Shown: positions 8,282 to 56,310 of the stretch, piece by piece | Position numbering within the stretch: position 1 is the stretch's first letter | Layout of the letters: each line of letters opens with the position of its first letter | Source: an uncultured Melioribacteraceae bacterium | Lineage (GTDB): Bacteria; Bacteroidota; Ignavibacteria; Ignavibacteriales; Melioribacteraceae | Assembly: GCA_964617555.1 (NCBI GenBank) | Contig: CAZTYP010000029.1 | Coordinates: forward strand, 372 to 64,371 | DNA: 64,000 nt | Direction: 5' to 3' | Made by a program: the position numbers and the translations under genes | The notes under the pieces: generated by a model | The model's database searches: none | What the model was told of the DNA's origin: nothing | The model's input: only the letters and a program-made list of their open reading frames with translations

Positions 8282-8298
8282 TGTTTGTCAAAATCTTT

Positions 8299-8772
8299 TT
8301 ACTTAATACTCCATAAAATCCACAAAACAATTATAAGATTTGGGATAAATTTTATTACATATTGATTTATTCCGTTTTGTTGCATCTTTCTCAAAAACCT
8401 ATCCCACCAAAGGAAATCCGGTCCAATATGATTTAATTTTTTGCCCATTGCCAAAGTTACAAACAAATCGTGTGCAAAAGAACGAATACCAACCGCAAGC
8501 AATATCATTTGAAATGCAAACAATAAATTTTCCGTTATTAAGTAGACTAAAATTGCAAATACAATTTTAACAAGGGCTTTTTCCAAAGCATCGAACAAGT
8601 GCCATTTTAATTCGTACTTAACAAAGTCGTTTTTAATTTCGGAAAATTTTTCTTTGCCGAGTTTCTCTTTCATTAACTTTGTTTCCAATGCAAAAGCTCC
8701 GTCATGGCTCCCTTCAAAATAGTAATAAAGAAGCCAAAATATTATTGATGCAATAAAAATGTATAATTCCAT
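8299..8772 (-). CDS. Hypothetical integral membrane protein (about 4 TM helices)
   Basis: 157-aa ORF with four hydrophobic segments. Its start shares a base with the stop of the upstream SGNH gene (8772). No family recognised. Confidence 0.45.
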   Translation of the reverse strand: MELYIFIASIIFWLLYYYFEGSHDGAFALETKLMKEKLGKEKFSEIKNDFVKYELKWHLFDALEKALVKIVFAILVYLITENLLFAFQMILLAVGIRSFAHDLFVTLAMGKKLNHIGPDFLWWDRFLRKMQQNGINQYVIKFIPNLIIVLWILWSIK

Positions 8773-10040
8773 TATTTGTTTTTCTCCGGAATAAATAAAG
8801 TGTTGTAATTGGTTGTTATAAAATTAAAAATTTTTTCGGCAATAATTTTATTTGCAACGGGGGAATAGTGCCGCTTCATAAAAAGTTTGTTAATGCCATA
8901 TTTATCGGCATACTGTTTAAGTGAATCGTAAGGCTCAACAAATTTGTTTCCCTCTTTTAATTCGGAAAAAAGTTTATCATAAATGAACTTTTGATTGTAC
9001 ATAAATTTTAAAAATTTTCCCGTTAAAAAATCTAAATCGTTTTTTACCGGTAAATGTACGGGAACAAAATATTTCCCTTCTGCGGTTACATCATTTTTAA
9101 ATTGAGTAATTAATTTATATGTAATCTTATAACTTTCGCTTTCAGGCTTATAATAATCTATTTCGTTAAAAATCTGTGAAAGGGCGGAAACAACAAAGGA
9201 AACGGTTTTGCTGTAATAAAAAATATTCGACGAATAATTTTCGCGAGAATAAAACCCTTCGTAGTTTGCAAATTTCCAATTGTGAAAATTCCTAATAATA
9301 TCAACGGTTTTTTCAATATGTTTTATGGGATTACTGATTTTTACCAAAGCTCCCTTACGCAAAACAAAACGAGGTTTGGAATACGGGATTTTCGTAATAA
9401 AATAATAGAACGGTCTTAAAATATTTATATGTCGTTTTACATTTTCAAATTGTACCCCCAGAATAATAATATCAGGATTGAATTTTTTCTTTGTTGATTG
9501 CCAGCGCAGATAAGCCTGGTCAATTCCGTATCCGCTTACACCGAAGTTAATTACTTCAACATCAAAATTCTTTTTTGTAAAAAGATGTTGCAGATAATAT
9601 CCGATTGTATTTTCAAAAGGGACTTCATCTCCGTGCGAATATGAATCCCCGAAAATTGCAATTCTTATTCTCTTTCCCTTTGCATATTCAATATTCGTTG
9701 TTTCACTGCGAATAGCATCTTTGTTATAAATATAAATGTTGTTTTTCCCTTTATAGCAAGGGCTTGGTAACCATCCCAACAAAGTATCCGGCACAAGTCG
9801 AACGTTTTTAAATTTTCGAATTGGTTTTGTATTATAGATGCTGTCGGCAACTTTATGTTGCAAAAGTGCGTTTATCTTTTTTTCAGTTTCATGTATTGGA
9901 AGTTTGTACGGCTTTAAATGAATATAGTTTAAACTCATATTCCCGTCGGAATCTGTAACCGTTAAAAAAGAGATTGTGATTTCAACCATTGCAAATAACA
10001 GCAACAGAGTAAAAACCAATAGCAGTAATTTTTGCTTCAT
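8772..10040 (-). CDS. SGNH/GDSL-family hydrolase, membrane anchored
   Basis: N-terminal TM/signal segment. Block I reads IAIFGDSYSHGDEV (GDS), followed by FGVSGYGIDQ (block II Gly). Length 422 aa. Confidence 0.6.
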   Translation of the reverse strand: MKQKLLLLVFTLLLLFAMVEITISFLTVTDSDGNMSLNYIHLKPYKLPIHETEKKINALLQHKVADSIYNTKPIRKFKNVRLVPDTLLGWLPSPCYKGKNNIYIYNKDAIRSETTNIEYAKGKRIRIAIFGDSYSHGDEVPFENTIGYYLQHLFTKKNFDVEVINFGVSGYGIDQAYLRWQSTKKKFNPDIIILGVQFENVKRHINILRPFYYFITKIPYSKPRFVLRKGALVKISNPIKHIEKTVDIIRNFHNWKFANYEGFYSRENYSSNIFYYSKTVSFVVSALSQIFNEIDYYKPESESYKITYKLITQFKNDVTAEGKYFVPVHLPVKNDLDFLTGKFLKFMYNQKFIYDKLFSELKEGNKFVEPYDSLKQYADKYGINKLFMKRHYSPVANKIIAEKIFNFITTNYNTLFIPEKNK

Positions 10041-31845: not shown

Positions 31846-32031
31846 ATGAGTCAATCATATCAAGATTTACAAGATCTGTTAAAAGGAATGGAAACAGATA
31901 TTCAAAAATTTTACGAAAAAGGACAAGCGGCAGCTGGTACTCGCCTTCGTAAAGCTTTAAGCGAATTAAAGAAAAAAGCACAAGACATGAGAAACGAAAT
32001 TCAAACAATCAAAGCGGAAAGAAAAGGATAA
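31846..32031 (+). CDS. Histone H1-like small basic DNA-binding protein (Bacteroidetes-type histone H1 / Hc1-like)
   Basis: 61 aa. The core KGQAAAGTRLRKALSELKKKAQDMRNEI matches the conserved AAGTR(V/L)RK...K block of this family. A GGAGGA RBS precedes the ATG and a strong terminator follows. Confidence 0.65.
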   Translation: MSQSYQDLQDLLKGMETDIQKFYEKGQAAAGTRLRKALSELKKKAQDMRNEIQTIKAERKG

Positions 32032-33444: not shown

Positions 33445-33963
33445 TTGAAAATGAAAAAAAATGCGGTAATTATTTTTATGTTCTTTTTTTTATTGATAGT
33501 TGGATGTAGTAAAACCGAACGGGACAATGAATATTATCAACTTGCTAAAAAAAGTTTAAACGAAAAAAAATATTATGATGCACTAAAATATTTTCAAAAA
33601 ATTGTTGATGAATATCCTAAAAGTAAACATTATAAAGATGCATTATTACAAACAGGAGAACTGACTCAGGGCCTTGTTGACAAAAAACTTACTAAAAAAG
33701 AAGCCTATAAAAAAGCGATTGAAATTTATATAAAATTCCAAAAAAAATATCCCCAAGATGGCAAAGCTCCTCAAGCCCTTTTTATGATCGGCTTTTTGCA
33801 AGCGAACGAATTAGGCAAACTTGAAGAGGCAAAGGCAACTTACAATAAATTTTTGGAACTATATCCGAACTCCGAAATGGCACAATCGGCAAAAGCCGAA
33901 CTCGAAAATTTAGGGTTGTCGCCCGATCAAATACTTGAACAAAAAATTAAAAACAATAAGTGA
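33445..33963 (+). CDS. TPR-repeat lipoprotein (YbgF/BamD-like)
   Basis: Lipobox LLIVGCSK followed by TPR-like helices (YYDALKYFQKIVDEYPKS, ALFMIGF..., AKATYNKFLELYPNS). The track's TTG start is 33445; an ATG at 33451 is equally plausible. Confidence 0.55.
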   Translation: MKMKKNAVIIFMFFFLLIVGCSKTERDNEYYQLAKKSLNEKKYYDALKYFQKIVDEYPKSKHYKDALLQTGELTQGLVDKKLTKKEAYKKAIEIYIKFQKKYPQDGKAPQALFMIGFLQANELGKLEEAKATYNKFLELYPNSEMAQSAKAELENLGLSPDQILEQKIKNNK

Positions 33964-34868: not shown

Positions 34869-35048
34869 AAAAAGGATTATTTATATTGTATAAAGTGTTG
34901 CCTTTTTTATACAGCAATCCATTTTTGAAGACAAATAAATGTTTTATGCAGAAATAATGTTTGTTTTTCTTTAATAATTGGGGAAAATATTAAAACAACA
35001 TCTTGGCACAATCTATGTATAAAGATTGGAAAACAAACGGAGGATAAA

Positions 35049-36158
35049 ATGAAAAACGGATTATGGATTTTTGTTTTATTTGTAGCAATTTCTTTTACGG
35101 GATGTTACACCAGCTTTTCCCCTCGCGATGCGGAATCGGAGGCCTACGGAAAATTAAGTAAAGGATTCTATGATTCTCCCGACATTGCTTCCGCTTATGA
35201 TTCTTTAGACTTTGAAGAATATGGTTCTGTGGAAGAATATCCTCAAAATGATAATGATGTTACAGTTGTAAATAATTATTACGGTGATTCGTGGGATTCT
35301 CCTCCTCTCTATTATAATGATTACTCTTTTAGCGGCGGCTTCGGGTTTTACGGTGCATATTATGACCCGTTCTATTCTTCCTATTATTCTCCTTTCCATA
35401 CGGTTTATTATCCCAATTATGCTTCTTCTTATATTAATGTGTACGGAGATGCTTACTTTGGCTGGTATTCCCCGAATTATTATGGTGGGAGATATTTTTC
35501 TCCTTCTCCCGTACGATACAGAACTTATCAAGTTGCGTCGTCGTATAACACCGGTTCTTCTTTACGTAATACAAGAGGAAGAACAACTTTATCAAGAAGA
35601 AGCCGAAATACTTCCGGCGGAATGGTTTCCCGAACAGGAAATTATGCTTCAGTAAATAGTGCAAGCAGACTTAAAGGTTTCGATTTGGATAGGGATTTGG
35701 TTGTTACAAAAAGAGTGAATAACAGTGAGAAAATTTCCGGTTCTTTACGCAATGCCGGCATAACAAAAACCGATAATGCAAGGTCGGTTTCAAAAAGAAG
35801 TACGAGTTTGTCCCGCAGACGCATTGCCGGCGAAAAAGGATACAGAATATTGGCAAGCAGATCAAGCAGCCGTGCTGCAAAAAGAACATACGGCAGAACA
35901 CATCCGCAGAGTGTAAAAAACAAAAAAGTAAATAAAAGCAGAAGTAAAAGAACATATTCTTCCTCAAGAAGTTCAGGTTCAAGAAATTCATCATCACGCT
36001 CGTATTACAGGCCTCCATCTCGTTCAAGTAACAGAACGCCTAGTGTTTCGGGGTCTTCACGGGGCAGTCGCTCCGGTAGAAGTTATTCCGGTTCAAGAAG
36101 TCCGTCGCGAAGCAGTTCATCTTCATCACGAAGTTCCAAGAAGACGCGAAGAAGATAA
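35049..36158 (+). CDS. Low-complexity lipoprotein with an acidic N-region, a Tyr/Ser/Gly-rich aromatic region and a long Ser/Arg-rich basic tail
   Basis: Signal peptide with lipobox (AISFTGCYTS). AGGA RBS at about 35040. Residues about 75-160 are Tyr-rich (YYGDSWDSPPLYYNDYSFSGGFGFYGAYYDPFYSSYYSPF...). The last ~200 aa are dominated by S and R, ending ...SRSPSRSSSSSSRSSKKTRRR. Ser and Arg are spelled with mixed synonymous codons. Confidence 0.6.
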   Translation: MKNGLWIFVLFVAISFTGCYTSFSPRDAESEAYGKLSKGFYDSPDIASAYDSLDFEEYGSVEEYPQNDNDVTVVNNYYGDSWDSPPLYYNDYSFSGGFGFYGAYYDPFYSSYYSPFHTVYYPNYASSYINVYGDAYFGWYSPNYYGGRYFSPSPVRYRTYQVASSYNTGSSLRNTRGRTTLSRRSRNTSGGMVSRTGNYASVNSASRLKGFDLDRDLVVTKRVNNSEKISGSLRNAGITKTDNARSVSKRSTSLSRRRIAGEKGYRILASRSSSRAAKRTYGRTHPQSVKNKKVNKSRSKRTYSSSRSSGSRNSSSRSYYRPPSRSSNRTPSVSGSSRGSRSGRSYSGSRSPSRSSSSSSRSSKKTRRR

Positions 36159-36262
36159 CGAGATTACAATTAGCAAATTAGTAACCATTTAACTAACACT
36201 TTTGTTGTTAAACAGGATTGTTGTGCCCATTAAAATTTTGAATTAAAAACGCAGGTGATAAA

Positions 36263-37711
36263 ATGAAAAATAAATGGAAAATATTATCGCTCATATTATT
36301 AATGATTACATTCTCTGCAAATATTTTTGCACAAAACGAAAACGATGCGGTTCGCTTGGCTTTGCCGGGAGTTTTATCCAACGCCAGGGCTTTGGGAATG
36401 GGTAACGCTTATATTACAAACGGAGATGATTATTCGGCAATGTTTTTTAATCCAGCCGGGTTGGCTCTTTCCAACTATTCTCAATTAACCGGAAGTTTTT
36501 ATCATCGCATTTATGAAAACAACTCAACTTTTTTCGGAGAGAATGATACATATAAAAATAATTCTACACAATTCGGGCAATTGGGTTATCTTTACAAAGC
36601 TCCCGCAACACGCGGAAGTTTGGTTTACGGATTCGGATACCAGCAGGATAAAGATTTTACTTCTTCCCTAAGTTTTGAAGGATATAATCCTAACGATAAT
36701 TCCATGATTAAATATTTAACCGATAAAAATGATGATATCCCTTTTTTGCTCGGATTAAGTTACCCTTTGGTGGATGCGGATAACAATTATATTAAAGATA
36801 CAACTCACATAAAAGGGGATTTAACACAAAGCGGAAATATTTTGGAAAGCGGAGGCATTAACCGTTACAATTTCGGAATTGCCGTTGAAGCGGCTAAAGG
36901 GGTTTTTATTGGCGGAAGTGTTAATTATTTATCAGGTACTTATAAAAACGAAAGAGAATATTATGAAGACGATTGGGATAATTTTTATGTTGATCCAACG
37001 GATATTAACGACCCTAACACTCGTGATTTTCAAACATTCTATTTAAATGATAAAATTGATTGGGACTTATATGCATGGGAATTTCGCTTAGGATTTATAA
37101 TAGATTGGATGCATTTTATCCGGCTCGGCGGTTCCGCAAAACTTCCTACAACTTTTCATATAAAAGAAAATTATCTTATCAAAGGTTATTCCCAATTTGA
37201 CGGGGATTATTTTATAGATTTGCTCCCCTCCGAAAGTATGGTAAGATACGAAATTAAAACTCCGTTGGAATTTTCACTAGGGGCATCAATAGATTTGTAT
37301 TTACTTACGATTAATGCACAAGCAACTTTTATAGATTATACACAAATGGAATTTTCCGGCGAATTGAATCAATCTGCAATTGATGAAAACAACAGAGTTA
37401 TTCACGATAATTTTAGAACGGTACTTAATTATAACATTGGTGCCGAAATGAAAATTCCTTTTACACAAATATTTGCACGAGCCGGTATTATGTATTATAC
37501 ATCACCTTACAAAGACGACCCTAAAGAATTTAATCGTGTTTTTCTTAATGCAGGTGCGGGAATTATTGCAGGTAATGCGTTTAAGTTCGATGTAGCTTAC
37601 TCCTACGGTTTCTGGAATACATACACGGATAATTATGGATATGATGAATCACGTATTTATCAGAGTATTAATTCGCATACATTTATGCTTACAACAACAA
37701 TTCTATTCTAA
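36263..37711 (+). CDS. FadL/PorV-like outer-membrane beta-barrel protein
   Basis: Signal peptide (ANIFAQNE). N-terminal ARALGMGNAYITNGDDYSAMFFNPAGLA motif of the FadL/OMPP1/PorV type. Beta-strand periodicity, with a C-terminus ending TTTILF. Confidence 0.6.
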   Translation: MKNKWKILSLILLMITFSANIFAQNENDAVRLALPGVLSNARALGMGNAYITNGDDYSAMFFNPAGLALSNYSQLTGSFYHRIYENNSTFFGENDTYKNNSTQFGQLGYLYKAPATRGSLVYGFGYQQDKDFTSSLSFEGYNPNDNSMIKYLTDKNDDIPFLLGLSYPLVDADNNYIKDTTHIKGDLTQSGNILESGGINRYNFGIAVEAAKGVFIGGSVNYLSGTYKNEREYYEDDWDNFYVDPTDINDPNTRDFQTFYLNDKIDWDLYAWEFRLGFIIDWMHFIRLGGSAKLPTTFHIKENYLIKGYSQFDGDYFIDLLPSESMVRYEIKTPLEFSLGASIDLYLLTINAQATFIDYTQMEFSGELNQSAIDENNRVIHDNFRTVLNYNIGAEMKIPFTQIFARAGIMYYTSPYKDDPKEFNRVFLNAGAGIIAGNAFKFDVAYSYGFWNTYTDNYGYDESRIYQSINSHTFMLTTTILF

Positions 37712-38897: not shown

Positions 38898-40709
38898 ATG
38901 AAGATTAAAATAGTTACATTATTTCTGCTTGCTCTTTTTATTTCCGCATGTTCTTCCGTTACCGTTGAAGAGAAAAAAGAAAGTGCGGGACAAAAAAAAG
39001 ATCGAATTCAAAATGAACAATTGGCGGAAGATTTTTTTATAAAAGGGGCACTTCACGATTTAAAAGGGGAGTATCCTTCCGCAATATTGGAATATCAAGA
39101 GGCATTGCGGTTGGACGAAAAAGCCGGTATTCATTATGCTTTAGGGAAAGATTATCTGCTTTTGCGTAAGTTCCCTTTGGCGTTGTATCATGCACGTAAC
39201 GCCGTAAAATTAGCCCCCGAAGATGCCGAATATAATTTTTTCCTTGGTAGTATTTATCAAATGGGACAAAAGCCTGATTCGGCGGAAGCATATTTTGAGA
39301 AAGTAATAGCAATAGATTCCCTTTATTATCAAGCTTATTATAATATTGCCCAATTAAACGAAGCAAAAAATCCGTTGAAATCGTTAGAGGTTTATAACAA
39401 CTTATTAAAGTTACTGGGTCCCGAATGGAATGTATTATTAAAAATTGCGGAATTGAATGAACGTTTGGGGAATGTTGATAATACAATAAAAACGGTTGAA
39501 GAACTATTGAAATTAAATCCGTCTGATTTAAAATTGCAAAAATTGTTAATAGAATCGTATTTAAAAACAAACAAAAATGAAAAAGCCCTTGCCCTTACCG
39601 ACGATGCCTTAAATATGTTCCCTGATGACTTGGAATTGATTGAATATAAAGGAAATGCTTATGCAAATATGGGTAAATGGAAGGATGCATCGGTTCAGTA
39701 TAAAAAAATAATCAAATCAAAAAAACTCCCTTTTGATGTTAAAAAAAGAATTGCAGCAGGATTTGTTGCCGAAGCGGCAAAAGATTCGGAAGTTATTCCG
39801 ATTACCAAACAAATTTTAACCGAACTGGAAAAAGATTCTACCGATTGGCAAGTAAGTGCTTTTTGGGGAGAAATTTACATTGAAGAGGGAAACGACTCGT
39901 TGGCAATAGAGCAATTTAAAACGGCTGCACATACTGCAACCTGGAATGCACAGTTGTGGAATAGATTGGGAATTTTGTTGTTCGATTCTCACAGATACAA
40001 AGAAGCTGCCGATGAGATGAAAAATGCAGTGTTAAAATTTCCGGATGATTTTGTTGATAATTTAATACTCGGGTTATCTCTTTCGCAGTTGGGTGATATT
40101 GAAAGTGCGGAACGCGCTTTGGGACATGCCGTGCGGCTTAATCCGAACGATTTAACGGCGTTGCATGCATATGGTTTTACGCTTAACCAATTAAAACGTA
40201 CCGATGCGGCAATTGTTTATTTGGAACGTGCTTTATCGATTGAACCTAAAAACATTCAAGTAATTGGTACACTCGGTTTAATTTACGACGGGCTGAAAGA
40301 ATATAATAAAAGCGATTCGTTGTATGAACGTGCACTGGCAATAGATTCAACCGATGTTCTCATTGCAAATAATTTTGCATATTCTCTTGCCGTACGCGGA
40401 GTTCAACTGCAAAGAGCATTGAAATTATCAAAGTATGCAATTACTAATGCTCCCGATAATTCTTCTTATCTTGATACTTACGGTTGGGTTCTTTTTAAGT
40501 TGGGAAAATATTACGAAGCCATTAAGTATATTAAAAAAGCAATTGAGTTGGATAATGAAAATGCTACATTGTACGATCATTTGGCAGATATTTATGCAGA
40601 AATGAATGATATGGGAAATGCAATTAAATATTATAAAAAAGCATTAGCTCTTGATTCCGAAATAGAAGGAGTAAAAGAAAAATTGAAAAAGGCAGAAAAA
40701 AATGATTAA
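38898..40709 (+). CDS. Tetratricopeptide-repeat lipoprotein
   Basis: Lipobox LFISACSS. At least 10 TPR-like units are present, for example AILEYQEALRLDEK, YNFFLGSIYQ and AIKYYKKALALDSE. Confidence 0.75.
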   Translation: MKIKIVTLFLLALFISACSSVTVEEKKESAGQKKDRIQNEQLAEDFFIKGALHDLKGEYPSAILEYQEALRLDEKAGIHYALGKDYLLLRKFPLALYHARNAVKLAPEDAEYNFFLGSIYQMGQKPDSAEAYFEKVIAIDSLYYQAYYNIAQLNEAKNPLKSLEVYNNLLKLLGPEWNVLLKIAELNERLGNVDNTIKTVEELLKLNPSDLKLQKLLIESYLKTNKNEKALALTDDALNMFPDDLELIEYKGNAYANMGKWKDASVQYKKIIKSKKLPFDVKKRIAAGFVAEAAKDSEVIPITKQILTELEKDSTDWQVSAFWGEIYIEEGNDSLAIEQFKTAAHTATWNAQLWNRLGILLFDSHRYKEAADEMKNAVLKFPDDFVDNLILGLSLSQLGDIESAERALGHAVRLNPNDLTALHAYGFTLNQLKRTDAAIVYLERALSIEPKNIQVIGTLGLIYDGLKEYNKSDSLYERALAIDSTDVLIANNFAYSLAVRGVQLQRALKLSKYAITNAPDNSSYLDTYGWVLFKLGKYYEAIKYIKKAIELDNENATLYDHLADIYAEMNDMGNAIKYYKKALALDSEIEGVKEKLKKAEKND

Positions 40710-41490
40710 AATAAAACCGTTTATTTTTATAACAAGCATAATTTTGTTTTTTATAGGATGTAGTTCCGAAAAAGAGATTACAACAAACACCCCGAAAGTA
40801 ATACCCGCACCTCGGTTAATAAAAAAATTAGAAGGGAACAGAAGAACCATTAAAACCTTTGATGCCGTTGGCACTATCCAAGTAAAAAGTAAAAAATTTA
40901 ACGGTAAAACCGGTTTTAAAATTTTAATTAAAAGACCCGATTCAATTAAAATATCTATATACGGACCATTCGGAATTGATATTGCTCACGGATTATTTAC
41001 AAAAGAACATTTCCTTTTTTATAATGTAATGAAAAAGAAAATCTATACGGGAAATAACAGCCGCAATGTTTTGCAAAAAATGTTTAAAATAAATTTATCT
41101 TTCGAAAATTTAATTGATGCATTTGCCGGCTCTGTAAATCTTACGAAAGAGTTGCATACCGAACCGGCTAAGTATGAGATATTGGATGATATTTACAATC
41201 TGACTTATATAGATACGGCAAATAACAGACAAACAACATATAGAATAACCAAACAAGATTTAAAAATAACAGATTACATAATTTCCACACTTGACGGTAA
41301 GGAATTATTATCCGGAGAATATTCCCAATTTAAGAAATACGAAGGTGTTCCCCTTCCGAAAGTAGTGCTTATCAGAAACAAAGCAAAGCACGAAAGCATT
41401 AAAGTGAGGTATAAAAAAATAAAGGTGAACAAAAAACAGTTATCCCTAAAAATTAAACTTCCGTCTGACGTTGAAAAAATCGAATGGTAA
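40702..41490 (+). CDS. DUF4292 / LolB-like lipoprotein
   Basis: Lipobox FFIGCSSE, 262 aa. The position between a TPR protein and an M23 protein matches the conserved Bacteroidota-type trio. Overlaps at both junctions. Confidence 0.55.
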   Translation: MIKIKPFIFITSIILFFIGCSSEKEITTNTPKVIPAPRLIKKLEGNRRTIKTFDAVGTIQVKSKKFNGKTGFKILIKRPDSIKISIYGPFGIDIAHGLFTKEHFLFYNVMKKKIYTGNNSRNVLQKMFKINLSFENLIDAFAGSVNLTKELHTEPAKYEILDDIYNLTYIDTANNRQTTYRITKQDLKITDYIISTLDGKELLSGEYSQFKKYEGVPLPKVVLIRNKAKHESIKVRYKKIKVNKKQLSLKIKLPSDVEKIEW

Positions 41491-42704
41491 AATTTATTAA
41501 AAATATCTTTTTATTTCTTTTTGTTGCCGCTTTTTTGGTTGCCCAAACAAATGAAAGTATCAAAAAGAAAAATGCTGAACTGGAAAAGATAAAATCTGAA
41601 ATTACACGTTTGGAAAAGGAACTGGCATCTAAAAAAAATGTGGAAACAGATAATATTCAATTGTTGGATAAAATCAATCATCAAAGTCATTTGCTTAACG
41701 AGGCAATAAAAAGAATTGTTGAGGAAGAAAAAGCGCTTGAAAAAAAAATCAAAAAATTAAATTTACAAATTACCGAACTTCAAAAAGAAATTACCGAACT
41801 GCAGAAAGAATATGCCTCGTATGTACAATGGCTTTATAAAAACGGACAAGAATCCAAATGGAGTTTGTTACTTAAAGCCGATTCTTTTAATCAAGCCGTG
41901 GTTAGATATAAATATTTTAATTATATAACTGATAAAAATGAGGCGAGGGTTACAAGGTTAAGGGAACAAAAAGAGAAGTTGGAAAGGTTAACTTCGGATT
42001 TACGGTTGCAAATAAAAGAAAAGAAAAAATTGGAAACCGAAAAGGAAAAAGAATCCGAAAAATTAAAACTGCGCAGAGAAGAAAAAAACAAGTTGCTTGC
42101 CGAACTTGTTAAAGACAGAAAAAACATAGAAAAAGAAATAGATGAAAAAAGGAAATATGAAATAGAAATCAAATCCATAATTGTAAACTTAATTGAAAAA
42201 GAAAGAGAACGGGAAAGAAAATTAAGAGAGGCAAAATTTAAAAACAATTCCGTTCAGCCCTATATTCCAAAAATCAACTACACAAAATTTCAAAATTTTG
42301 CCGAGTTAAAAGGAAAACTTAACTGGCCTGTCTTAAAAGGGAAAATTGTAAGAAAGTTCGGCGAAAACAAAAATAAAAAACTAAAAACAATAACGCTTAA
42401 TTATGGTGTAGATATTAAAACGGTTTCGGAAGGCAAAGTGTTTGCCGTTGCCGAAGGTGTTGTTTCCATAATTGATTGGATACCCGGTTTTGGTAGTATA
42501 ATTATTGTTACGCATAAAGGTAATTTCAGAACGGTGTACGGGCATATTGATAATATTGAAGTGAATGAAGGAGATGTTATAAAAGCCGGAACTGTTTTGG
42601 GAACGGTAAACAAGAGTTTGGAAGGAAATCTTGTCCATTTTGAAATTTGGGACGAACGTAATTATAAAAATCCCGAAAAATGGTTGGCAAAAAAGAGTAA
42701 ATAA
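41484..42704 (+). CDS. Murein hydrolase activator EnvC-like protein (N-terminal coiled coil plus C-terminal M23/LytM domain)
   Basis: Long heptad-rich K/E coiled coil. The C-terminal LytM block contains GVDIKT, GFGSIIIVTHKGNFRTVYGH and LHFEIW-type (VHFEIWD) motifs. Confidence 0.8.
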   Translation: MVKFIKNIFLFLFVAAFLVAQTNESIKKKNAELEKIKSEITRLEKELASKKNVETDNIQLLDKINHQSHLLNEAIKRIVEEEKALEKKIKKLNLQITELQKEITELQKEYASYVQWLYKNGQESKWSLLLKADSFNQAVVRYKYFNYITDKNEARVTRLREQKEKLERLTSDLRLQIKEKKKLETEKEKESEKLKLRREEKNKLLAELVKDRKNIEKEIDEKRKYEIEIKSIIVNLIEKERERERKLREAKFKNNSVQPYIPKINYTKFQNFAELKGKLNWPVLKGKIVRKFGENKNKKLKTITLNYGVDIKTVSEGKVFAVAEGVVSIIDWIPGFGSIIIVTHKGNFRTVYGHIDNIEVNEGDVIKAGTVLGTVNKSLEGNLVHFEIWDERNYKNPEKWLAKKSK

Positions 42705-50185: not shown

Positions 50186-50952
50186 ATGTTTTTTGAAAAG
50201 TATGTCTTGATGTAAAACGGGAGATCGTTTACAATATATCTTTTAAATAATCTTGTCGGCTCATTAAAAAGACGCCAAAGCCATTCCAGGCCCATTGATT
50301 GCAGTAATGCCGGACTTCTTTTCTTTGTTCCGGTAAAAAAATCTAAAGTAGCCCCTATGCCGATGTTAATTTTGCTGCCGAAAGAGTTCATGTTTTTATA
50401 TAACCATTTTTCTTGTCTCGGACATCCCAAAGCGGCAAAAACAATGTCCGGTTTAAAATCTGTTATTTTTTCAATCACTTCCTTGTTCTCTATTTCATCT
50501 TTTTCAAATTGATAGCTCGGAGAATAACAGAATAGGTTTTGTTGTGAAATTCCGTATTGATTTATTAGGATTGTTTCGGTTTTTCTTGATACTTCGTTTG
50601 TTCCTCCTATGATGGCAATCCTCTTATCTGATTTTAGGGCTAAATCTATTAAAACGGGGAAAACATCGTTGCCGGTTATTCTCGGAATCTTTTCTTTATA
50701 TTTACGTTTTATCAAACTTGTTATACCGAAACCGTCGGGTAAGTTTAGTAATGTTTGCTTACAAATATTGTTGAATTCTTTATCCTTGTTTGCAATTTTT
50801 AGAAAGTCCAAATTAAAGGTAGTTAATAATTTTGGGGTGTTGTTTTCGGTTAACAAATCCGATAAAAACAACTTCAAATTTTCTATTGTAAGCGAATGGA
50901 TAGTAATACCAAGTATTTTATACGTTCTGTAGGGTTGATTATTTGTCATCAT
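50182..50952 (-). CDS. WecB/TagA/CpsF family glycosyltransferase (GT26)
   Basis: ILGITIHS...TFNLDFL, PDGFG, IAIIGG and DIVFAALGCPRQEKWL are hallmark GT26 blocks. Its 3' end overlaps the convergent methyltransferase gene by 4 nt. Confidence 0.85.
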   Translation of the reverse strand: MMTNNQPYRTYKILGITIHSLTIENLKLFLSDLLTENNTPKLLTTFNLDFLKIANKDKEFNNICKQTLLNLPDGFGITSLIKRKYKEKIPRITGNDVFPVLIDLALKSDKRIAIIGGTNEVSRKTETILINQYGISQQNLFCYSPSYQFEKDEIENKEVIEKITDFKPDIVFAALGCPRQEKWLYKNMNSFGSKINIGIGATLDFFTGTKKRSPALLQSMGLEWLWRLFNEPTRLFKRYIVNDLPFYIKTYFSKNI

Positions 50953-51006
50953 TTGTTGATAAAAATAATTATCTTAAAAGTTAAATTTAACATTATTTGG
51001 GTGAAT

Positions 51007-54000
51007 ATGACTAAGAAAATTTTAATATCAATTTTATTTTTGTATTCAATTTTGTTAGGTAAAGCAAAAGTTGAAAATGAAATTATTGAAGGGAATAAAT
51101 TAAAATTAACTTTTACCTCGTCACTCATTTATTCATTAGAAAAAAAAGGGAATAAATCGTTTTTTGTTATTCCTGATTTTCAAGATGAAAGTGCCCCCGG
51201 AGATGTTAGTTTGCCGTCAAACGAAATTTTCATTTCGCTACCATATTTAACACAACCAAAAGTAAGTTTTAAAATTCATACAAAGAAAAGAATCTCCGCT
51301 ATTCCGAAATTTAACGATAAAGTTGAATTAATGGACGGTGAATTAATCTATTCCAAACCGGACAATTTAAAAAACAGTAAAAAGGAACATTTTAAAATAA
51401 AAGGTTATTTGTGGATAGGAAACAGTTATTGTATGCAAGTGGAATTTACTCCCGCAATTTTTAACGCCACAGATAATATTATAGAATTGGTAGATAACTT
51501 TGAAATAGAATTAATTTTTGATAAAAATATTTTTTCCGACGGGAAATTAAAAAAACAGTCGGACAAAAAAAGTATTATTGCAAATACTAATTTTACTTTG
51601 AACAATATTAAACAAAAATTTCCCATAGCTGCAAGTGATACGTGGATTGATTATTCTAAAGATTATGTAAAAATAGGGACTGCGCGCGACGGAATTTACA
51701 GAATAACAAAATCCGATTTGGAAAACCTCGGCGTTAATGTTTCGGCTCTTAATCCCAAATCTTTTAAATTATTCCTTAAAGGAGAAGAACTTCCGATTTT
51801 TGTTGAAGGTGAAAGTGACTTATCTTTTGATTCAAACGATTATTTGGAATTTGTAGGTATTCGCAATATGGGCGGGCATCACAGAGAACTTAGCGGTTAT
51901 GACCTACCTTATAACGAGTACTTGGGGCGTTATACGGATACAACTGTTTATTGGCTTACATGGGGAGGTGATAACGGAAAGCGTGTGAAAATTTTGGCCG
52001 GCAATGAACTTACTTCTTCAGATACATTGGAGTATTATTCCCAAATTGAGCATTACGAAAAAAACAATTGGTTTGATTTTTCGTGTGGCAGTCAAGTCCG
52101 CAGAGAATCCCCATTTTGGATTGAAAATAAAACATGGGTGGAAGGTGTTTTGCGCGGCGGAAAAAAAGTCAGCAAAAATTTTGTTTTAAGCAACATTTAT
52201 CCGAATAAAACCGCAACAATACTTGCAAAATTACAAGATTATGCCGCTAACCTTAGTAACAAAGCACATCTGCTGGCAATAGGAATAAATAACGACGGAA
52301 ATTATTATGATTCAACTTATGTAAATAAGTATGATAAAATTGTATTATCGGCAAACATAAACCCCAGCTCACTTAAAGAAGGTAAGAATAGTTTACAAGT
52401 TTATTCGTTTGTTACCGATGCATCGTTAAATGCATGTGCAACAGATTGGTACGAAATTGAATACCCGCGCTATTTAAAACCTGTTAACGATTCATTAAAC
52501 TTTACTTTCCCTTTTCTTTCTGCCGAGGAGATAAAAGTAATAAAACTGCAAGATGTAAGTACAAATAATTTTGTTATTTGGAAATACGGGAACAATTATA
52601 AAAAATACTTGCCTTCTAAAATTAATGGTAATATCCTTATTGCCGATACTCTTTCGGCAACTTCCAAATTTTGTTTTGTTGATAAAGTGAAAATCAAAAC
52701 GCCCAAACTTTATTATATAAAAAAATTCATTAATCTTAGAAGTTCCGAAAACCAAGCGGATTATATAGCCGTAACACATAAAAAATTTAAAAACGAAACC
52801 GAAAAATATTGTCGATTTATTTCCTCCAATTATAATATTGTAACTAAAGTTGTTGATATTAATGATATTTATGATGAATACGGTTACGGATTTTTTAATC
52901 CCGAAGTGATAAAAGATTTTCTTAAATCGACTCATAATAATTGGAAAATGCCAAAACCTCAAAGTGTTGTTTTAATAGGTGGTGCCACTTATGATTATTA
53001 CGGCAACAAATATAAAAATTTCAGTTCTGTGAAAAATCGTGTGCTTAATTATGTTCCTTCCTTTGGGGCACCCGTTAGTGATAATTGGTTTGTTACCTGG
53101 GATACAACCGGAGCCTACGTTCCTCAAATGAATATCGGAAGAATACCTGTTACTACCAATGAAGAATTTGTCTGGTATTTTGATAAACACAAAGATTATG
53201 TTTCTCAGGCGTATGATGATTGGAATAAAAAGTATTTGTTTTTTTCCGGAGGGAACGAAAATAAGCCTGCCGAATTAAATTCTATGAGGCAATCTAATCA
53301 ATATGTTGTTGATAATTATGTAATTCCGAAACCGATAAGCGGAAAAGCGGTTCACTTTTATAAAACTCTTGAACCTCCTACGAACTTTGGTCCATATACA
53401 CATGAATTTATTCAAAATACAATTAATGAAGGGGCTGTCTTTATTTCCTACCTCGGACATAGCGGCACACAAACTTGGGATAATTCCATTACAAATCCGG
53501 CACAATTAAAAAATAATATTGGTCGCTATCCCATTGTTTCCGATTTCGGGTGTTCAACCGGACGTTTTGCCGAACCTGATGTAACATCCTTTTCGGAATT
53601 ATTTACTGTAGGAAGTGACGGGCAAGCATTGGGCTATATTGGAAATGCTTCGCTCGGTTTTACAACAACATCTCTTTTAATGCCGAAATTATTTTATAAA
53701 AAAATTCTGAAAGAGAGCATCCACACCGTTAGTCTTGCACATAAAGAAGCAAAACTGGAAATGCTTCAAAAATACGGTTCAGTGGGAATTTATAAATTAT
53801 TTGCTTTAACAAATACATTTATAGGAGACCCTGTGCTCGCTTTACCTGTACCGACCAAACCAAATTTTGTTGTAAAAGAAGAAGGAATAGAGACAGAATC
53901 GGAATTATTAACAGATATTATGGATAGCACATCAATCTCCGTAATAATAAATAATTACGGAACGGTAACTGACGATACACTGACAATTTTAGCAATCCAT

Positions 54001-56310
54001 AAATATAATTCCGAAACGGATTCTATCATTTCCAAAATAATGGTTCCTGAATTTGTTGATACTATTACGGTAAAAGTTCCCATAAAGAAAAAAGCGGGAA
54101 ACCATTTAATACAAGTTATTCTTGATCCTTCCGACAAGTTTGAAGAAATTTACAAAGATGACAATACAGCACAAATACGCTTTAATGTTGCAAGTTCTTC
54201 CATTCGTCCACTATTAAATTCACGTTTCTTTAACGGGGTAAAAGATAGTTTGGTGTTCATAAATCCAAGCTCAAAACCGAATATTGAAACAATTATCTTT
54301 GAAATATCCACCGATGAAAATTTTACGGAAGTTGAAAATTTTGAAATTCCTTTTGACACAATTATTACAAGTATTGATATTGCGGCTAATCTGAAAGAGA
54401 ACAAAAGATATTGGGGAAGAACCAAAATAAAAGGGGAAAATAATTATTCAACAACTTTTTCTTTCTTTACGAATAAAGATAAATATTCTTTAACTGATGA
54501 TTTTAGTTTTAGCAGGCAGAATTTGAAGAATATTAATGTTATAAATAATAATCTTCAAATTGATTCCACAATAATAAAATTTAAAATCTTTTCGGCAGGT
54601 CTCAGTGATGGAAACACAGCACTTATAATGAAAAACGGTACTAATTATATGTTTGACGGTACGTTGAGAGGGCACTATGTTACTACGTTTAAGGATTCCA
54701 CTTATGAGTTTGTTGAATCAAAAGTTTTTGACCTATTGGGAGGCGGAAGCACTGTTGCGGAACAATACAGTACGTTTCTGGATACGGTTCCTTCAAATTA
54801 TTTGGTAATGTTTGCCATTAAAGATGAAGGAGCAACAAATCTTAATTCAACGTTAAGAAATAAAATTAAAGGATTCGGCAGTGTTTTAATAGATAATGTT
54901 AAATTCCGTAGTTCTTGGGCATTTATCGGCAAGCGTGGTGCGGTTCCCGGTACAATGCCCGAAGCTGTTTCGGCAGAAGGAGATGGACCTGTAACAATTG
55001 ATACAACAATTTCATTTTTGTCCGATACGGGAAATATATTAACAACCGAAGTTGGGCCTGCAGGCAAGTGGAATAAGTTGATTTTAAATCAAGAAACTCC
55101 TTCAAATTCTAAAATTACGTATACTCCGCTGGGAATTAAAAAGAACGGAACAATTGATACACTTGCACAACTTGTTTTGCAAGATTCGGTCTCGGATTTA
55201 AGTTTTATTAATTCCGATATATATCCCAAAATAAAAATCCTTGCCGATTTTAATGCCAGTGACAATAAACAATCACCTGTATTAAAATATCTTGGAATTG
55301 ATTATGATAACATTCCCGAGTTTGCATTGAATTATCAAGCTGCTTCAGTTAAGTACGATTCCATAATGCAAGGGGGAAAAAACAGACTTTATTTCAATTT
55401 GTATAATATAGGAGAAACTAAGGCGGATTCCGTTCCTGTAAAAATAGAGTTGCAAAAATCGGATAATTCTTCCGTAATACTTAATGAATTTGTAACAACC
55501 GTTGATTCACTCAGAATAAAAAAATTCAATTTTCAATTTGATATCCCTTCTTCATACGGCTATGGTAATATGGCATTTGCAATTACAATTGACGAAACAA
55601 ATATAATACCGGAATTTTTTGAGGATAATAATTTTTATCGAGTTCCGTTTTATGTTAAAAAAGATACTTCAACAAATATTGTTTCGGCTAAACTGAATGT
55701 TAAATTTGACGGGTTTGATATTTTAGACGGTGATTTTGTTGCAGATAAACCTCAGATTACTTTTGAATTAAACTACAGTGGGAACTTTCCATACGATGAT
55801 ACTACTGTTGTTAAATTTATACTTGATAATAAAACCATCGCTTACTCGGAAATGAATGTTGATTATGATACAATCAATAGTATAATTTCCTACCAATATG
55901 AACCCGAATTGAATAACGGAAAACATTATTTGAAAGCGACACGCAAACCATTATACGTAGGAGATACCGGAGAAACGTTATATGAAAAACTTTTCACGGT
56001 TTCCGATGAATTAAAAGCCGTAGATATTTACAATTATCCTAATCCCGCAAGCGAAGAAACAAATTTCACTTTTCGCTTGGCAAAAGTACCTGAGTCGTTG
56101 GATATCAGAATTTACACTGTTGCCGGAAGATTAGTTAAAATTTTCAAATTAAAAAATTATGATTTGAAAGCGGATATTAATAAAATTTATTGGGATTTAA
56201 CGGATGAAGACGGAGACAAAATAGCAAACGGTGTTTATTTGTATAAGATAACTCTACGTTCTGGCAATAAAATTGAACATTACACCGAAAAATTGGCAAT
56301 AGTCAGGTAA
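51007..56310 (+). CDS. C25-family cysteine peptidase with a T9SS C-terminal sorting domain; probable homolog of the T9SS signal peptidase/sortase PorU
   Basis: I chose the start at MTKKILISILFLYSILLG (signal peptide) rather than the track's 50896, which overlaps the divergent gene. The PorU-like N-region reads W.DYSKDYVKIGTARDGIYRITKSDLENLGVNVSALNPKSFKLFLKGEELP. The C25 core has ADYIAVTH...VVDINDIYDEYGYG, catalytic-type YLGHSGTQTW (His) and SDFGCSTGRF (Cys). The C-terminus is NYPNPASEETNFTF...IRIYTVAGRLV...WDLTDEDGDKIANGVYLYKI...LAIVR. Confidence 0.7.
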   Translation: MTKKILISILFLYSILLGKAKVENEIIEGNKLKLTFTSSLIYSLEKKGNKSFFVIPDFQDESAPGDVSLPSNEIFISLPYLTQPKVSFKIHTKKRISAIPKFNDKVELMDGELIYSKPDNLKNSKKEHFKIKGYLWIGNSYCMQVEFTPAIFNATDNIIELVDNFEIELIFDKNIFSDGKLKKQSDKKSIIANTNFTLNNIKQKFPIAASDTWIDYSKDYVKIGTARDGIYRITKSDLENLGVNVSALNPKSFKLFLKGEELPIFVEGESDLSFDSNDYLEFVGIRNMGGHHRELSGYDLPYNEYLGRYTDTTVYWLTWGGDNGKRVKILAGNELTSSDTLEYYSQIEHYEKNNWFDFSCGSQVRRESPFWIENKTWVEGVLRGGKKVSKNFVLSNIYPNKTATILAKLQDYAANLSNKAHLLAIGINNDGNYYDSTYVNKYDKIVLSANINPSSLKEGKNSLQVYSFVTDASLNACATDWYEIEYPRYLKPVNDSLNFTFPFLSAEEIKVIKLQDVSTNNFVIWKYGNNYKKYLPSKINGNILIADTLSATSKFCFVDKVKIKTPKLYYIKKFINLRSSENQADYIAVTHKKFKNETEKYCRFISSNYNIVTKVVDINDIYDEYGYGFFNPEVIKDFLKSTHNNWKMPKPQSVVLIGGATYDYYGNKYKNFSSVKNRVLNYVPSFGAPVSDNWFVTWDTTGAYVPQMNIGRIPVTTNEEFVWYFDKHKDYVSQAYDDWNKKYLFFSGGNENKPAELNSMRQSNQYVVDNYVIPKPISGKAVHFYKTLEPPTNFGPYTHEFIQNTINEGAVFISYLGHSGTQTWDNSITNPAQLKNNIGRYPIVSDFGCSTGRFAEPDVTSFSELFTVGSDGQALGYIGNASLGFTTTSLLMPKLFYKKILKESIHTVSLAHKEAKLEMLQKYGSVGIYKLFALTNTFIGDPVLALPVPTKPNFVVKEEGIETESELLTDIMDSTSISVIINNYGTVTDDTLTILAIHKYNSETDSIISKIMVPEFVDTITVKVPIKKKAGNHLIQVILDPSDKFEEIYKDDNTAQIRFNVASSSIRPLLNSRFFNGVKDSLVFINPSSKPNIETIIFEISTDENFTEVENFEIPFDTIITSIDIAANLKENKRYWGRTKIKGENNYSTTFSFFTNKDKYSLTDDFSFSRQNLKNINVINNNLQIDSTIIKFKIFSAGLSDGNTALIMKNGTNYMFDGTLRGHYVTTFKDSTYEFVESKVFDLLGGGSTVAEQYSTFLDTVPSNYLVMFAIKDEGATNLNSTLRNKIKGFGSVLIDNVKFRSSWAFIGKRGAVPGTMPEAVSAEGDGPVTIDTTISFLSDTGNILTTEVGPAGKWNKLILNQETPSNSKITYTPLGIKKNGTIDTLAQLVLQDSVSDLSFINSDIYPKIKILADFNASDNKQSPVLKYLGIDYDNIPEFALNYQAASVKYDSIMQGGKNRLYFNLYNIGETKADSVPVKIELQKSDNSSVILNEFVTTVDSLRIKKFNFQFDIPSSYGYGNMAFAITIDETNIIPEFFEDNNFYRVPFYVKKDTSTNIVSAKLNVKFDGFDILDGDFVADKPQITFELNYSGNFPYDDTTVVKFILDNKTIAYSEMNVDYDTINSIISYQYEPELNNGKHYLKATRKPLYVGDTGETLYEKLFTVSDELKAVDIYNYPNPASEETNFTFRLAKVPESLDIRIYTVAGRLVKIFKLKNYDLKADINKIYWDLTDEDGDKIANGVYLYKITLRSGNKIEHYTEKLAIVR

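Follow-up and report, generated by a model that had tools for sequence, protein, structure and literature searches.

Barrel-anchored lipoproteins and the locus under study

The β-barrel assembly machinery (BAM) of Bacteroidota was reported in 2025 to contain BamG, a FadL-like barrel placed on the back of BamA. The N-terminus of BamG is extended and conserved, and BamG serves as the anchor of BamH, a surface lipoprotein with a conserved lipidated N-terminal tail that sits in a groove of BamG (PMC12611786, PMC12578637). The solved BAM complexes come from Flavobacterium johnsoniae, Bacteroides thetaiotaomicron and Porphyromonas gingivalis, and the BamG2/BamH2 paralogue pairs of Bacteroidota are non-essential (PMC12611786, PMC12578637). 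The genes bamG and bamH are neighbours in Ignavibacterium album, Salinibacter ruber, Fibrobacter succinogenes, Gemmatimonas aurantiaca, Caldithrix abyssi and Chitinophaga pinensis, and the genes of the paralogue pairs are neighbours as well (PMC12611786, Supplementary Table 1). The Bacteroidota lipoprotein export signal consists of at least two acidic residues no more than six residues after the cysteine and is carried by the Bacteroides BamH-K proteins; the role of PorV is noted in the same work (PMC12578637). BamG as a lipoprotein-anchoring barrel is a recent discovery in the Fibrobacteres–Chlorobi–Bacteroidetes (FCB) superphylum. Here we have analysed a stretch of 64,000 nucleotides from an uncultured Melioribacteraceae bacterium (assembly GCA_964617555.1, contig CAZTYP010000029.1, positions 372 to 64,371 of the forward strand; hereafter the window), in which a lipoprotein gene (35049–36158, forward strand) stands directly ahead of the gene of a FadL-like barrel. 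What is new is that this lipoprotein belongs to an unannotated family of about 900 clusters (50% identity) that is strictly coupled to a BamG-like barrel and yet predicted to be disordered.

Some other systems are relevant for comparison. The PorV–PorU and PorQ–PorZ pairs of the type IX secretion attachment complex involve FCB-specific FadL-like barrels that hold their partner at the cell surface. In Enterobacteria, the lipoprotein RcsF has a disordered, positively charged linker held by the OmpA, OmpC or OmpF barrel and senses lipopolysaccharide (LPS). Among low-complexity proteins, FUS is defined by repeated [G/S]Y[G/S] triplets, SR proteins by an RS domain together with an RNA recognition motif (RRM), and silaffins by Lys-rich KxxK clusters with modified Lys and phosphoserine.

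A lipoprotein gene under purifying selection

The main features of the gene are listed below, A1 being the alignment of the close relatives of the lipoprotein, A2 that of the N-terminal profile and A5 that of the wider family:

35039–35043, forward strand: ribosome-binding site GGAGG, seen directly in the sequence 5 nt ahead of the ATG
35049–36158, forward strand: lipoprotein open reading frame (ORF), 369 aa, ATG start
35049–35105, forward strand: signal peptide and lipobox S-F-T-G-C, with Cys19 as the lipidated residue
35106–35258, forward strand: acidic linker, residues 20–70, rich in Asp, Glu and Tyr, with an invariant D51-S-L (composition and alignment A1)
35274–35528, forward strand: aromatic block, residues 76–160, with 27% Tyr plus Phe, Trp, Pro and Gly (composition and alignments A1 and A5)
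35529–36155, forward strand: basic low-complexity tail, residues 161–369, Ser/Arg-rich in the lineage of the window and predicted to be disordered

The N-terminus, MKNGLWIFVLFVAISFTG followed by C19 (that is, ...ISFTG and then C19), satisfies the lipobox pattern [LVIF][ASTG][GAS]-C, and the lipoprotein of 369 aa described in an earlier, sequence-only reading of this DNA is confirmed in its start codon, ribosome-binding site and lipobox. The three compositional zones drawn by that reading were also recovered: residues 20–75 are acidic (net charge −10), Tyr accounts for 23 of the 85 residues from 76 to 160, amid Ser, Gly, Pro and Phe, and residues 161–369 form the basic tail (net +46), in which residues 161–300 carry +28 and the final 69 aa (301–369; 46% Ser and 23% Arg) carry +18. 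The entire protein has a net charge of +35, and its mature form a pI of 10.2. Relative to the other 42 ORFs in the window, enrichment is 3.5-fold for Ser (21.4% vs. 6.2%), 4-fold for Arg (11.4% vs. 2.8%) and 2-fold for Tyr (10.0% vs. 5.2%), and the lipoprotein favours Arg over Lys whereas the low-GC genome strongly favours Lys (9.4%).

A microsatellite or slippage origin is ruled out, since Tandem Repeats Finder detected no tandem array inside the gene, the dispersed repeats are short and weak only, and every one of the six Ser and six Arg codons occurs, mixed and in near-background proportions; the sequence-only reading had been right to deny that the Ser/Arg tract is a microsatellite. The local rise in GC that it had noticed is also real (0.39–0.43 within the gene against 0.23–0.34 in the flanks), as are the overlapping ORFs in four other frames, which are 76–123 aa long.

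A first homology search gave 20 relatives with 29–40% identity over 82–95% of the lipoprotein. Conserved blocks span the whole of A1 including the tail (SFTGCYTSFAPRDYEEESYG, VTVINNY, the aromatic block, PSxVRYRT…LRNNGGR, GFDLDRDL, KRTTDLERRRI, RSKRVYSS, SSRSYYKPPSRSS and a C-terminal RRR), and a codon comparison of three moderately diverged pairs gave ratios of nonsynonymous to synonymous substitution (dN/dS) of 0.12–0.22 for the whole gene and 0.10–0.26 for the tail alone. The frame is kept in more than 200 homologues. The exact lipoprotein sequence is recorded from three contigs, and between the window and a contig assembled independently there is one mismatch in 3110 nt, which falls outside the lipoprotein gene; with the gene identical in an independent assembly, an assembly artefact is ruled out. 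The ORF is a genuine lipoprotein gene under purifying selection. It was already argued from codon use that selection acts on the protein and slippage does not explain it, and the conserved frame and the low dN/dS, tail included, bear this out. A frame lost in relatives, an assembly artefact or a simple-repeat origin free of purifying selection had been named beforehand as findings that would speak against the gene, and what we found is a conserved frame, an identical independent assembly and no such repeat origin.

The lipoprotein, searched at full length and with its N-terminal part, has no meaningful match in Pfam or NCBIfam even at E ≤ 10. An AlphaFold2 (AF2) model of the lipoprotein alone has a mean predicted local distance difference test (pLDDT) score of 43.4 and a predicted template modelling (pTM) score of 0.15, values of a disordered chain; in the tail pLDDT is below 50 almost throughout, and the sole predicted helix beyond the signal peptide (residues 213–224) begins at the DLDRDL motif. 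On its own, the lipoprotein is predicted to be intrinsically disordered, with the caveat that the alignment behind the model is shallow (19 sequences) and that a fold induced by a partner is conceivable.

The GCYT lipoprotein family

Searches based on words are overwhelmed by the Ser-rich tail; a profile was therefore built from the N-terminal 150–180 residues, and genes lying 5′ of barrel homologues in Melioribacter, Rosettibacter and one Ignavibacteria metagenome-assembled genome (MAG) were included in it. The search with this profile gave 44 proteins: all 43 new ones carry a lipobox with GCYTQ, and the remaining one (P0016) had already been found in the first search. We refer to this previously unnamed family as GCYT lipoproteins and define it by C-Y-T-(Q/S) just after the lipobox, the motif VxVNNYY, a block of aromatic residues, the motif RNxxGxR and a low-complexity basic tail that terminates in GRR(R/K). 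In the window lipoprotein these correspond to CYTSF, VTVVNNYY, the Tyr zone, LRNTRGR and a C-terminal KKTRRR, and the protein matches the family profile with an E-value of 2.3e-25.

When 1.84 billion cluster representatives were searched, 937 clusters (50% identity) were retrieved at E ≤ 1e-3 and 267 at E ≤ 1e-10. Among 139 further family representatives, 137 have [GAS]CYT near the N-terminus and 120 have at least two basic residues among their last six, while the aromatic content of the N-terminal half has a family median of 27%. Motifs were counted in 201 members and in shuffled sequences: a VNNYY-like motif occurs in 133 members (3 in shuffles), RNxxGxR in 88 (4), [ST]YxPP in 52 (9), DLxR in 31 (0) and a GRR-type C-terminus in 99 (0). 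The protein of the window is not an isolated compositional oddity; it is one member of a large family with position-specific motifs, namely CYT(Q/S), VNNYY, RNxxGxR, DLDR, SYxPP and a C-terminal GRRR. Its landmarks, with their conservation in A1, are as follows:

35103–35150, forward strand: most conserved segment, C19-Y-T-S-F-x-P-R-D-x-E-x-E-x-Y-G34; G18, C19, Y20, T21, S22, F23, E29 and G34 invariant
35259–35282, forward strand: strand motif V-T-V-V-N-N-Y-Y, residues 71–78; N75 invariant and T72, N76 and Y77 at least 90% conserved
35502–35582, forward strand: basic motif P-S-x-V-R-Y-R-T ... L-R-N-x-x-G-R, residues 152–178; P152, R158 and R173 invariant and N174 and G177 at least 90% conserved
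35676–35699, forward strand: motif G-F-D-L-D-R-D-L, residues 210–217; L213 and D214 invariant and G210 at least 90% conserved
35997–36029, forward strand: R-S-Y-Y-R-P-P-S-R-S-S, residues 317–327, the [ST]-Y-x-P-P motif of the family; Y319 and S326 invariant
36138–36158, forward strand: C-terminal basic cluster K-K-T-R-R-R and stop codon; R369 invariant and R368 at least 90% conserved

C-Y-T is invariant family-wide; in A1, A2 and A5 the same holds for G18 and C19. The composition of the tail changes from clade to clade: it is Ser/Arg in that of the window, Asn/Thr/Lys/Pro or Thr/Arg/Gly in others, and Pro/Ala/Ser and nearly uncharged in the Fibrobacterota-labelled one, and some members have a net charge of about zero. 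Richness in Ser and Arg is the form that a basic tail of low complexity, with its motifs, takes in one lineage. Since this composition is not a family trait, the function that had been suggested from it, like that of silaffins or SR proteins, cannot be the conserved one. The organism labels of the members (Ignavibacteriales, Melioribacteraceae and Fibrobacterota MAGs) span at least two phylum-level groups. In their sources the members are named "hypothetical protein" or bear a stray automatic label, and no Pfam or NCBIfam model matches them.

Several genomes have a second, short GCYT lipoprotein (83–160 aa in its mature form) between the long one and the barrel (loci L020:2186–2548, L024:7192–8126, L035:5026–5541 and L037:5221–5538). 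As these short proteins retain just the CYT N-terminus, RNxxGxR and the C-terminal GRR(R/K), these three may be the minimal functional elements. The linker is also of interest for its D51-S-L (35199–35207), which matches the Bacteroidota O-glycosylation sequon D-[ST]-[AILVMT], D51 being invariant in A1. Between the lipid anchor and VNNYY the linkers of family members (e.g., those of P0151–P0175) have 1.27 sequons each over 201 sequences (0.23 when shuffled), and those of the Fibrobacterota-labelled KGRRR subfamily 2.64 (0.31 when shuffled), which suggests that the linker could be O-glycosylated, as BamG and BamH are.

Pairing with the downstream barrel

Two further features complete the locus:

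36159–36262, forward strand: spacer of 104 nt between the lipoprotein and barrel genes, with no forward-strand terminator found
36263–37711, forward strand: partner barrel gene, 482 aa, predicted 14-stranded FadL fold, BamG-like (AF2, Foldseek and profile matches)

In every contig with downstream DNA, a gene for a FadL/Toluene_X-type barrel of 390–490 aa is found directly 3′ of the lipoprotein gene and on the same strand. The pairing was checked in the close relatives, Melioribacter, Rosettibacter, Ignavibacteria, a MAG labelled Fibrobacterota and, from another lineage, a contig of 3.1 Mb; metagenome loci were found with a subfamily alignment (A6), and the pairing was counted where the locus extends far enough. 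In the relatives both genes overlap or are 2–63 nt apart, and in 21 distinct full pairs most gaps measure −4 to +2 nt, with stop and start codons often overlapping, which indicates translational coupling. The barrel has 60–71% identity where the lipoprotein has 35–40%.

The genes 5′ of the pair differ among lineages (DUF58, pdxJ or a small outer-membrane protein), and for this reason the pair is taken as the conserved unit; the upstream PGA_cap, tetratricopeptide repeat (TPR) and DUF58 genes were rejected as parts of the module, being syntenic in close relatives only. The barrel is the obligate genomic partner of the lipoprotein, and both form a two-gene module. The sequence-only reading had seen in the barrel, which it called FadL/PorV-like, a possible export partner, and it was correct in so far as searching related genomes for a lipoprotein beside a FadL-like barrel found this pairing wherever downstream DNA exists. 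The barrel is, however, closer to BamG in the profile and structure comparisons given below, and a role as anchor or dock is at least as likely as one in export.

At locus L024 (ENA contig_31314, 1.4 Mb) the barrel is split into two ORFs (8074–8841 and 8889–9557) and the neighbouring genes are fragmented, which looks like frameshift errors of a long-read assembly rather than biology. On the 3′ side of the pair, rsgA and a TPR–DUF4292–M23 cluster are common within Ignavibacteria. In the window this cluster, consisting of a TPR protein of about 600 aa, DUF4292 and an M23 peptidase, lies 3′ of rsgA on the forward strand (38898–42704) and is kept at loci L003, L005, L008, L016, L018 and L020; polysaccharide-synthesis genes (Polysacc_synt, UDP-galactopyranose mutase) come after it.

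Identity of the barrel

The best NCBIfam match of the window barrel is BamG (NF053685), with 52.1 bits and an E-value of 5e-14 (equivalog cut-off 250 bits), followed by PorV_fam with 42.9 bits (cut-off 90). Pfam Toluene_X was not reached at E < 0.01 by the window barrel; its relatives do carry Toluene_X. Matches in the PDB were obtained with the barrel-family profile (A3), the single barrel sequence giving none against PDB sequences. The best one was 9hiv_F (1.3e-8), which is the BamG of B. thetaiotaomicron (PMC12578637), and FadL, TodX and the N-terminal part of PorV came next. The AF2 model of the barrel has a pLDDT of 92, and its first three Foldseek matches are the BamG proteins of B. thetaiotaomicron, F. 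johnsoniae and P. gingivalis (9hiv_F, 9n2d_B and 9hjm_F), with E-values from 3.5e-18 to 6.9e-16 and TM-scores of 0.67–0.69. TodX and FadL follow (2.8e-15, TM-score 0.64), and PorV (8gl6_F) appears at rank 29 (E-value 2e-6, TM-scores 0.36/0.45). From the model and profile matches, the barrel is predicted to be nearer to BamG than to PorV or FadL. Membership in PorV/PorQ was rejected given the 42.9 bits against a cut-off of 90 and the low Foldseek rank.

The barrel retains the NPA hatch motif of FadL, at mature positions 40–42 instead of 33–35 as in Escherichia coli FadL (the numbering of the latter is taken from PDB entry titles), and its mature N-terminus is about 7 residues longer ahead of this motif. 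This extension contains a near-invariant Q24-N-x-N-D-A-x-R-L, in which Q24 and D28 are invariant and N25, A29, R31 and L32, as well as P35, are at least 90% conserved. The predicted mature start is this invariant Gln (IFA before the cleavage site, QNEND after it); exported Bacteroidota proteins that are cyclised to pyroglutamate typically have Gln at the N-terminus once signal peptidase I has cleaved. The predicted topology has 14 strands, with a kink in strand 3, long strands 4–7 and long acidic extracellular loops. The mature barrel has a net charge of −24, the predicted extracellular loops one of −17, and the short predicted periplasmic turns are about neutral (+2).

Comparison with described systems

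The closest resemblance is to BamH–BamG. Both cases have a lipoprotein and a 14-strand FadL-fold barrel encoded by adjacent genes, the barrel here is closest to BamG and has a conserved N-terminus that seems to be extended, and the lipidated N-terminus is the most conserved part of the lipoprotein. On the other hand, BamH is a folded crescent of two domains, the proximal one with a fold like that of a carbohydrate-binding module, whereas the GCYT lipoprotein is predicted to be disordered (pLDDT 43). The best reading is that the GCYT lipoprotein would be analogous to BamH and not a member of it by the BAM chains in the PDB and the NCBIfam models. We have not called it BamH because of the lack of similarity to any BAM chain, the predicted disorder, the absence of an acidic export signal and a barrel score under the BamG threshold. 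A literature search found no mention of the I. album genes IALB_1454 or IALB_1455.

With PorV and PorQ, the barrel shares the FadL-like nature and the possession of a partner, about 78 N-terminal residues align to PorV and there is a weak PorV_fam match; it differs in scoring 43 bits against 90, in a Foldseek rank far below BamG and FadL, and in having as partner a lipoprotein and not a C-terminal-domain (CTD) protein or sortase. FadL and TodX have the same fold, with the strand 3 kink, hatch and NPA motif, but canonical FadL genes are uncoupled from a dedicated lipoprotein, and the barrel described here seems to be extended at its N-terminus and carries long acidic loops. RcsF is similar as a lipoprotein with a disordered, positively charged chain held by a barrel; it differs in threading the lumen of general porins, in having a folded signalling domain, in being unrelated in sequence and in not being encoded beside its barrel.

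The likeness to the FUS low-complexity domain, the RS domain of SR proteins, diatom silaffins and Bacillus CotG and the CotB1 tail lies in bulk composition (Tyr- or Ser/Arg-rich, disordered and highly basic). Of the term "FUS-like" used in the sequence-only reading, the Tyr/Ser/Gly composition stands and the motif does not: there is a single [G/S]Y[G/S] triplet, located in the tail, and the Tyr zone is composed of YY, YxP and PxY. The tail has 30 RS or SR dipeptides, and the lipoprotein has three KxxK with Arg as its main basic residue. No homology to any of these proteins was found, there is no RRM, and Arg is used instead of modified Lys. Furthermore, the window protein is lipid-anchored and exported by a Gram-negative bacterium, and its composition is not kept across its own family.

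Functional readings

The most likely explanation, to which we give about an even chance, is that the lipoprotein acts as the docked, disordered partner of the BamG-like barrel. Once the lipoprotein has been exported by Sec and lipidated, its invariant N-terminal peptide with the lipid (triacyl-Cys-Tyr-Thr) would dock on the barrel wall, by analogy with the BamH N-terminal tail, and the VNNYY/aromatic block would probably dock on the barrel also. The remaining chain would stay unfolded and project as a flexible, mostly cationic tether, with the short tail motifs and the terminal GRRR as secondary contact points. This tether would probably be on the cell-surface side, which is proposed because BamG, PorV and PorQ hold their partners there and because the predicted acidic loops of the barrel lie there. 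In the lineage of the window, the Ser/Arg-rich +46 tail would favour binding to anionic components of the envelope, for example phosphate groups of LPS, acidic polysaccharide or the loops of the barrel itself. The net charge of the whole lipoprotein (+35) contrasts with that of the barrel (−24). The likely role of the module would be in outer-membrane biogenesis or surface organisation and not in fatty-acid uptake.

Several results weigh against this docked-partner reading. The barrel is far under the BamG equivalog cut-off (52 vs. 250 bits), as are the Fibrobacterota-type barrels, the Foldseek margin of BamG over FadL/TodX is small, and the N-terminal 78 or so residues of the barrel family align best to PorV. 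The lipoprotein has no detectable sequence or fold similarity to BamH, neither in NCBIfam (E ≤ 10) nor in the PDB searched with profiles A1 and A6, in a copy that contained the BAM entries 9HJ3, 9N2D and 9HJM. It also lacks the acidic export signal: the sequence reads C-Y-T-S-F-S-P and acidic residues start at +7/+8 (R-D-A-E-S-E), and the A1 consensus after the Cys (CYTSFAPRDYEEE) lacks it likewise, although the rule is that of Bacteroidota and may not apply outside. Over 21 loci, the net charge of the lipoprotein is not significantly correlated with that of its barrel (rho −0.36, p 0.11). Finally, Fibrobacterota-type members are nearly neutral, so polycation binding cannot be a family-wide mechanism.

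If the complex of barrel and docked lipoprotein is true, it would be a variant of the theme recently discovered in the FCB superphylum and a rare case of a bacterial disordered lipoprotein held by a barrel via short conserved motifs. It would provide a handle on the roles of FadL-fold barrels in envelope biogenesis beyond fatty-acid uptake, on how the outer membrane handles disordered, highly charged chains and on why some lineages push the tail to extreme Ser/Arg. Melioribacter roseus is cultivable, which makes experiments feasible. A bolder proposal, possible but clearly tentative, is that the GCYT lipoprotein and its barrel make up an outer-membrane module, ancient in the FCB superphylum and not recognised before, in which a BamG-type barrel would hold a disordered lipoprotein with aromatic block and basic tail; it would be either a version of BamGH with a disordered canopy or a lipid-anchored polycationic surface brush that is SR-protein-like in Melioribacteraceae.

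Among the alternatives, the one that survives best, unlikely as we consider it, is a true BAM accessory pair: the barrel would be the BamG orthologue of this lineage, sitting on BamA, and the GCYT lipoprotein the functional BamH of Ignavibacteria and Fibrobacterota-like bacteria, with a disordered aromatic and basic chain replacing the folded canopy. It fits with BamG being the best NCBIfam, PDB-profile and Foldseek match, with a conserved, apparently extended barrel N-terminus and an invariant lipoprotein N-terminus as described for BamG and BamH (PMC12578637), with the adjacency of bamG and bamH outside Bacteroidia, and with a highly conserved barrel (60–71%) in a housekeeping neighbourhood (rsgA, cysS and TPR–DUF4292–M23). 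Against it, the published BamH homologues were presumably found via folded-protein similarity, of which the GCYT family shows none, and the barrel score is far from that of an equivalog. Since BamG2/BamH2 pairs exist, a paralogous module is equally possible (PMC12611786, PMC12578637).

Next comes the possibility, rather doubtful in our opinion, of a periplasm-facing lipoprotein anchored in the inner leaflet of the outer membrane, which would gate or plug the FadL-type channel from below or be a disordered spacer or tether contacting peptidoglycan or anionic phospholipids via GRRR and the basic tail. A long, disordered chain whose terminal basic cluster is conserved speaks for it, as do the strict pairing with the barrel and the lack of a canonical Bacteroidota export signal just after the Cys (rule from PMC12578637). 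The charges of the barrel point the other way, with short periplasmic turns of +2 and long extracellular loops of −17. Lpp-type cross-linking requires a C-terminal Lys, and the C-terminus here is Arg. Known partners of FadL-like barrels in the FCB superphylum, such as PorU and PorZ, are on the surface. The same is true of BamH (PMC12611786).

The model of the sequence-only reading, a surface or secreted low-complexity protein that acts by its composition (phase separation, hydrogel or adhesion, binding of extracellular DNA, polyphosphate or exopolysaccharide, or silaffin-like mineral templating) with the barrel as exporter, appears quite improbable. The extreme Tyr and Ser/Arg content, the charge of +35 and the selection of Arg over Lys in a Lys-rich proteome favour it; a disordered, Cys-free chain could in principle traverse a narrow channel, and S/R-rich bacterial peptides that template silica do exist (e.g., the Bacillus CotB1 tail). 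However, the S/R composition is not conserved in the family and positional motifs are conserved instead, which argues for specific contacts; FUS-type triplet repeats are missing, and the barrel retains a hatch with the NPA motif, so that its pore would not be expected to stand open for export. That this lipoprotein undergoes phase separation, binds polyanions or templates minerals is speculation. As for a non-coding or artefactual ORF, derived from odd nucleotide composition or misassembly, the long ORFs in four other frames across the same DNA are in its favour, but its probability is practically nil and it is already refuted by a frame conserved in over 200 homologues always with a lipobox at its start, by a dN/dS well under 1 and by the identical independent assembly, the ribosome-binding site and the operonic arrangement with the barrel gene also standing against it.

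Other genes of the window

A 172-aa TPR lipoprotein of the window (33445–33963, forward strand) scores 34 bits with Pfam YfiO/BamD (gathering threshold 25) and comes near the TIGR03302 BamD and YbgF/CpoB models; it is much shorter than BamD, and its place two genes 5′ of the module is shared by close relatives only. Further upstream, a 61-aa ORF (31846–32031, forward strand) matches the chlamydial histone-H1-like Hc1 (PF07432, E-value 2e-18) and is found at the same place in relatives L005–L008. Relatives of the group to which the window belongs encode Por_Secre_tail proteins, and in the window a protein of 1804 aa (50896–56310, forward strand) with Peptidase_C25 (gingipain/PorU-type), ILEI and CARDB domains may be related to type IX secretion.

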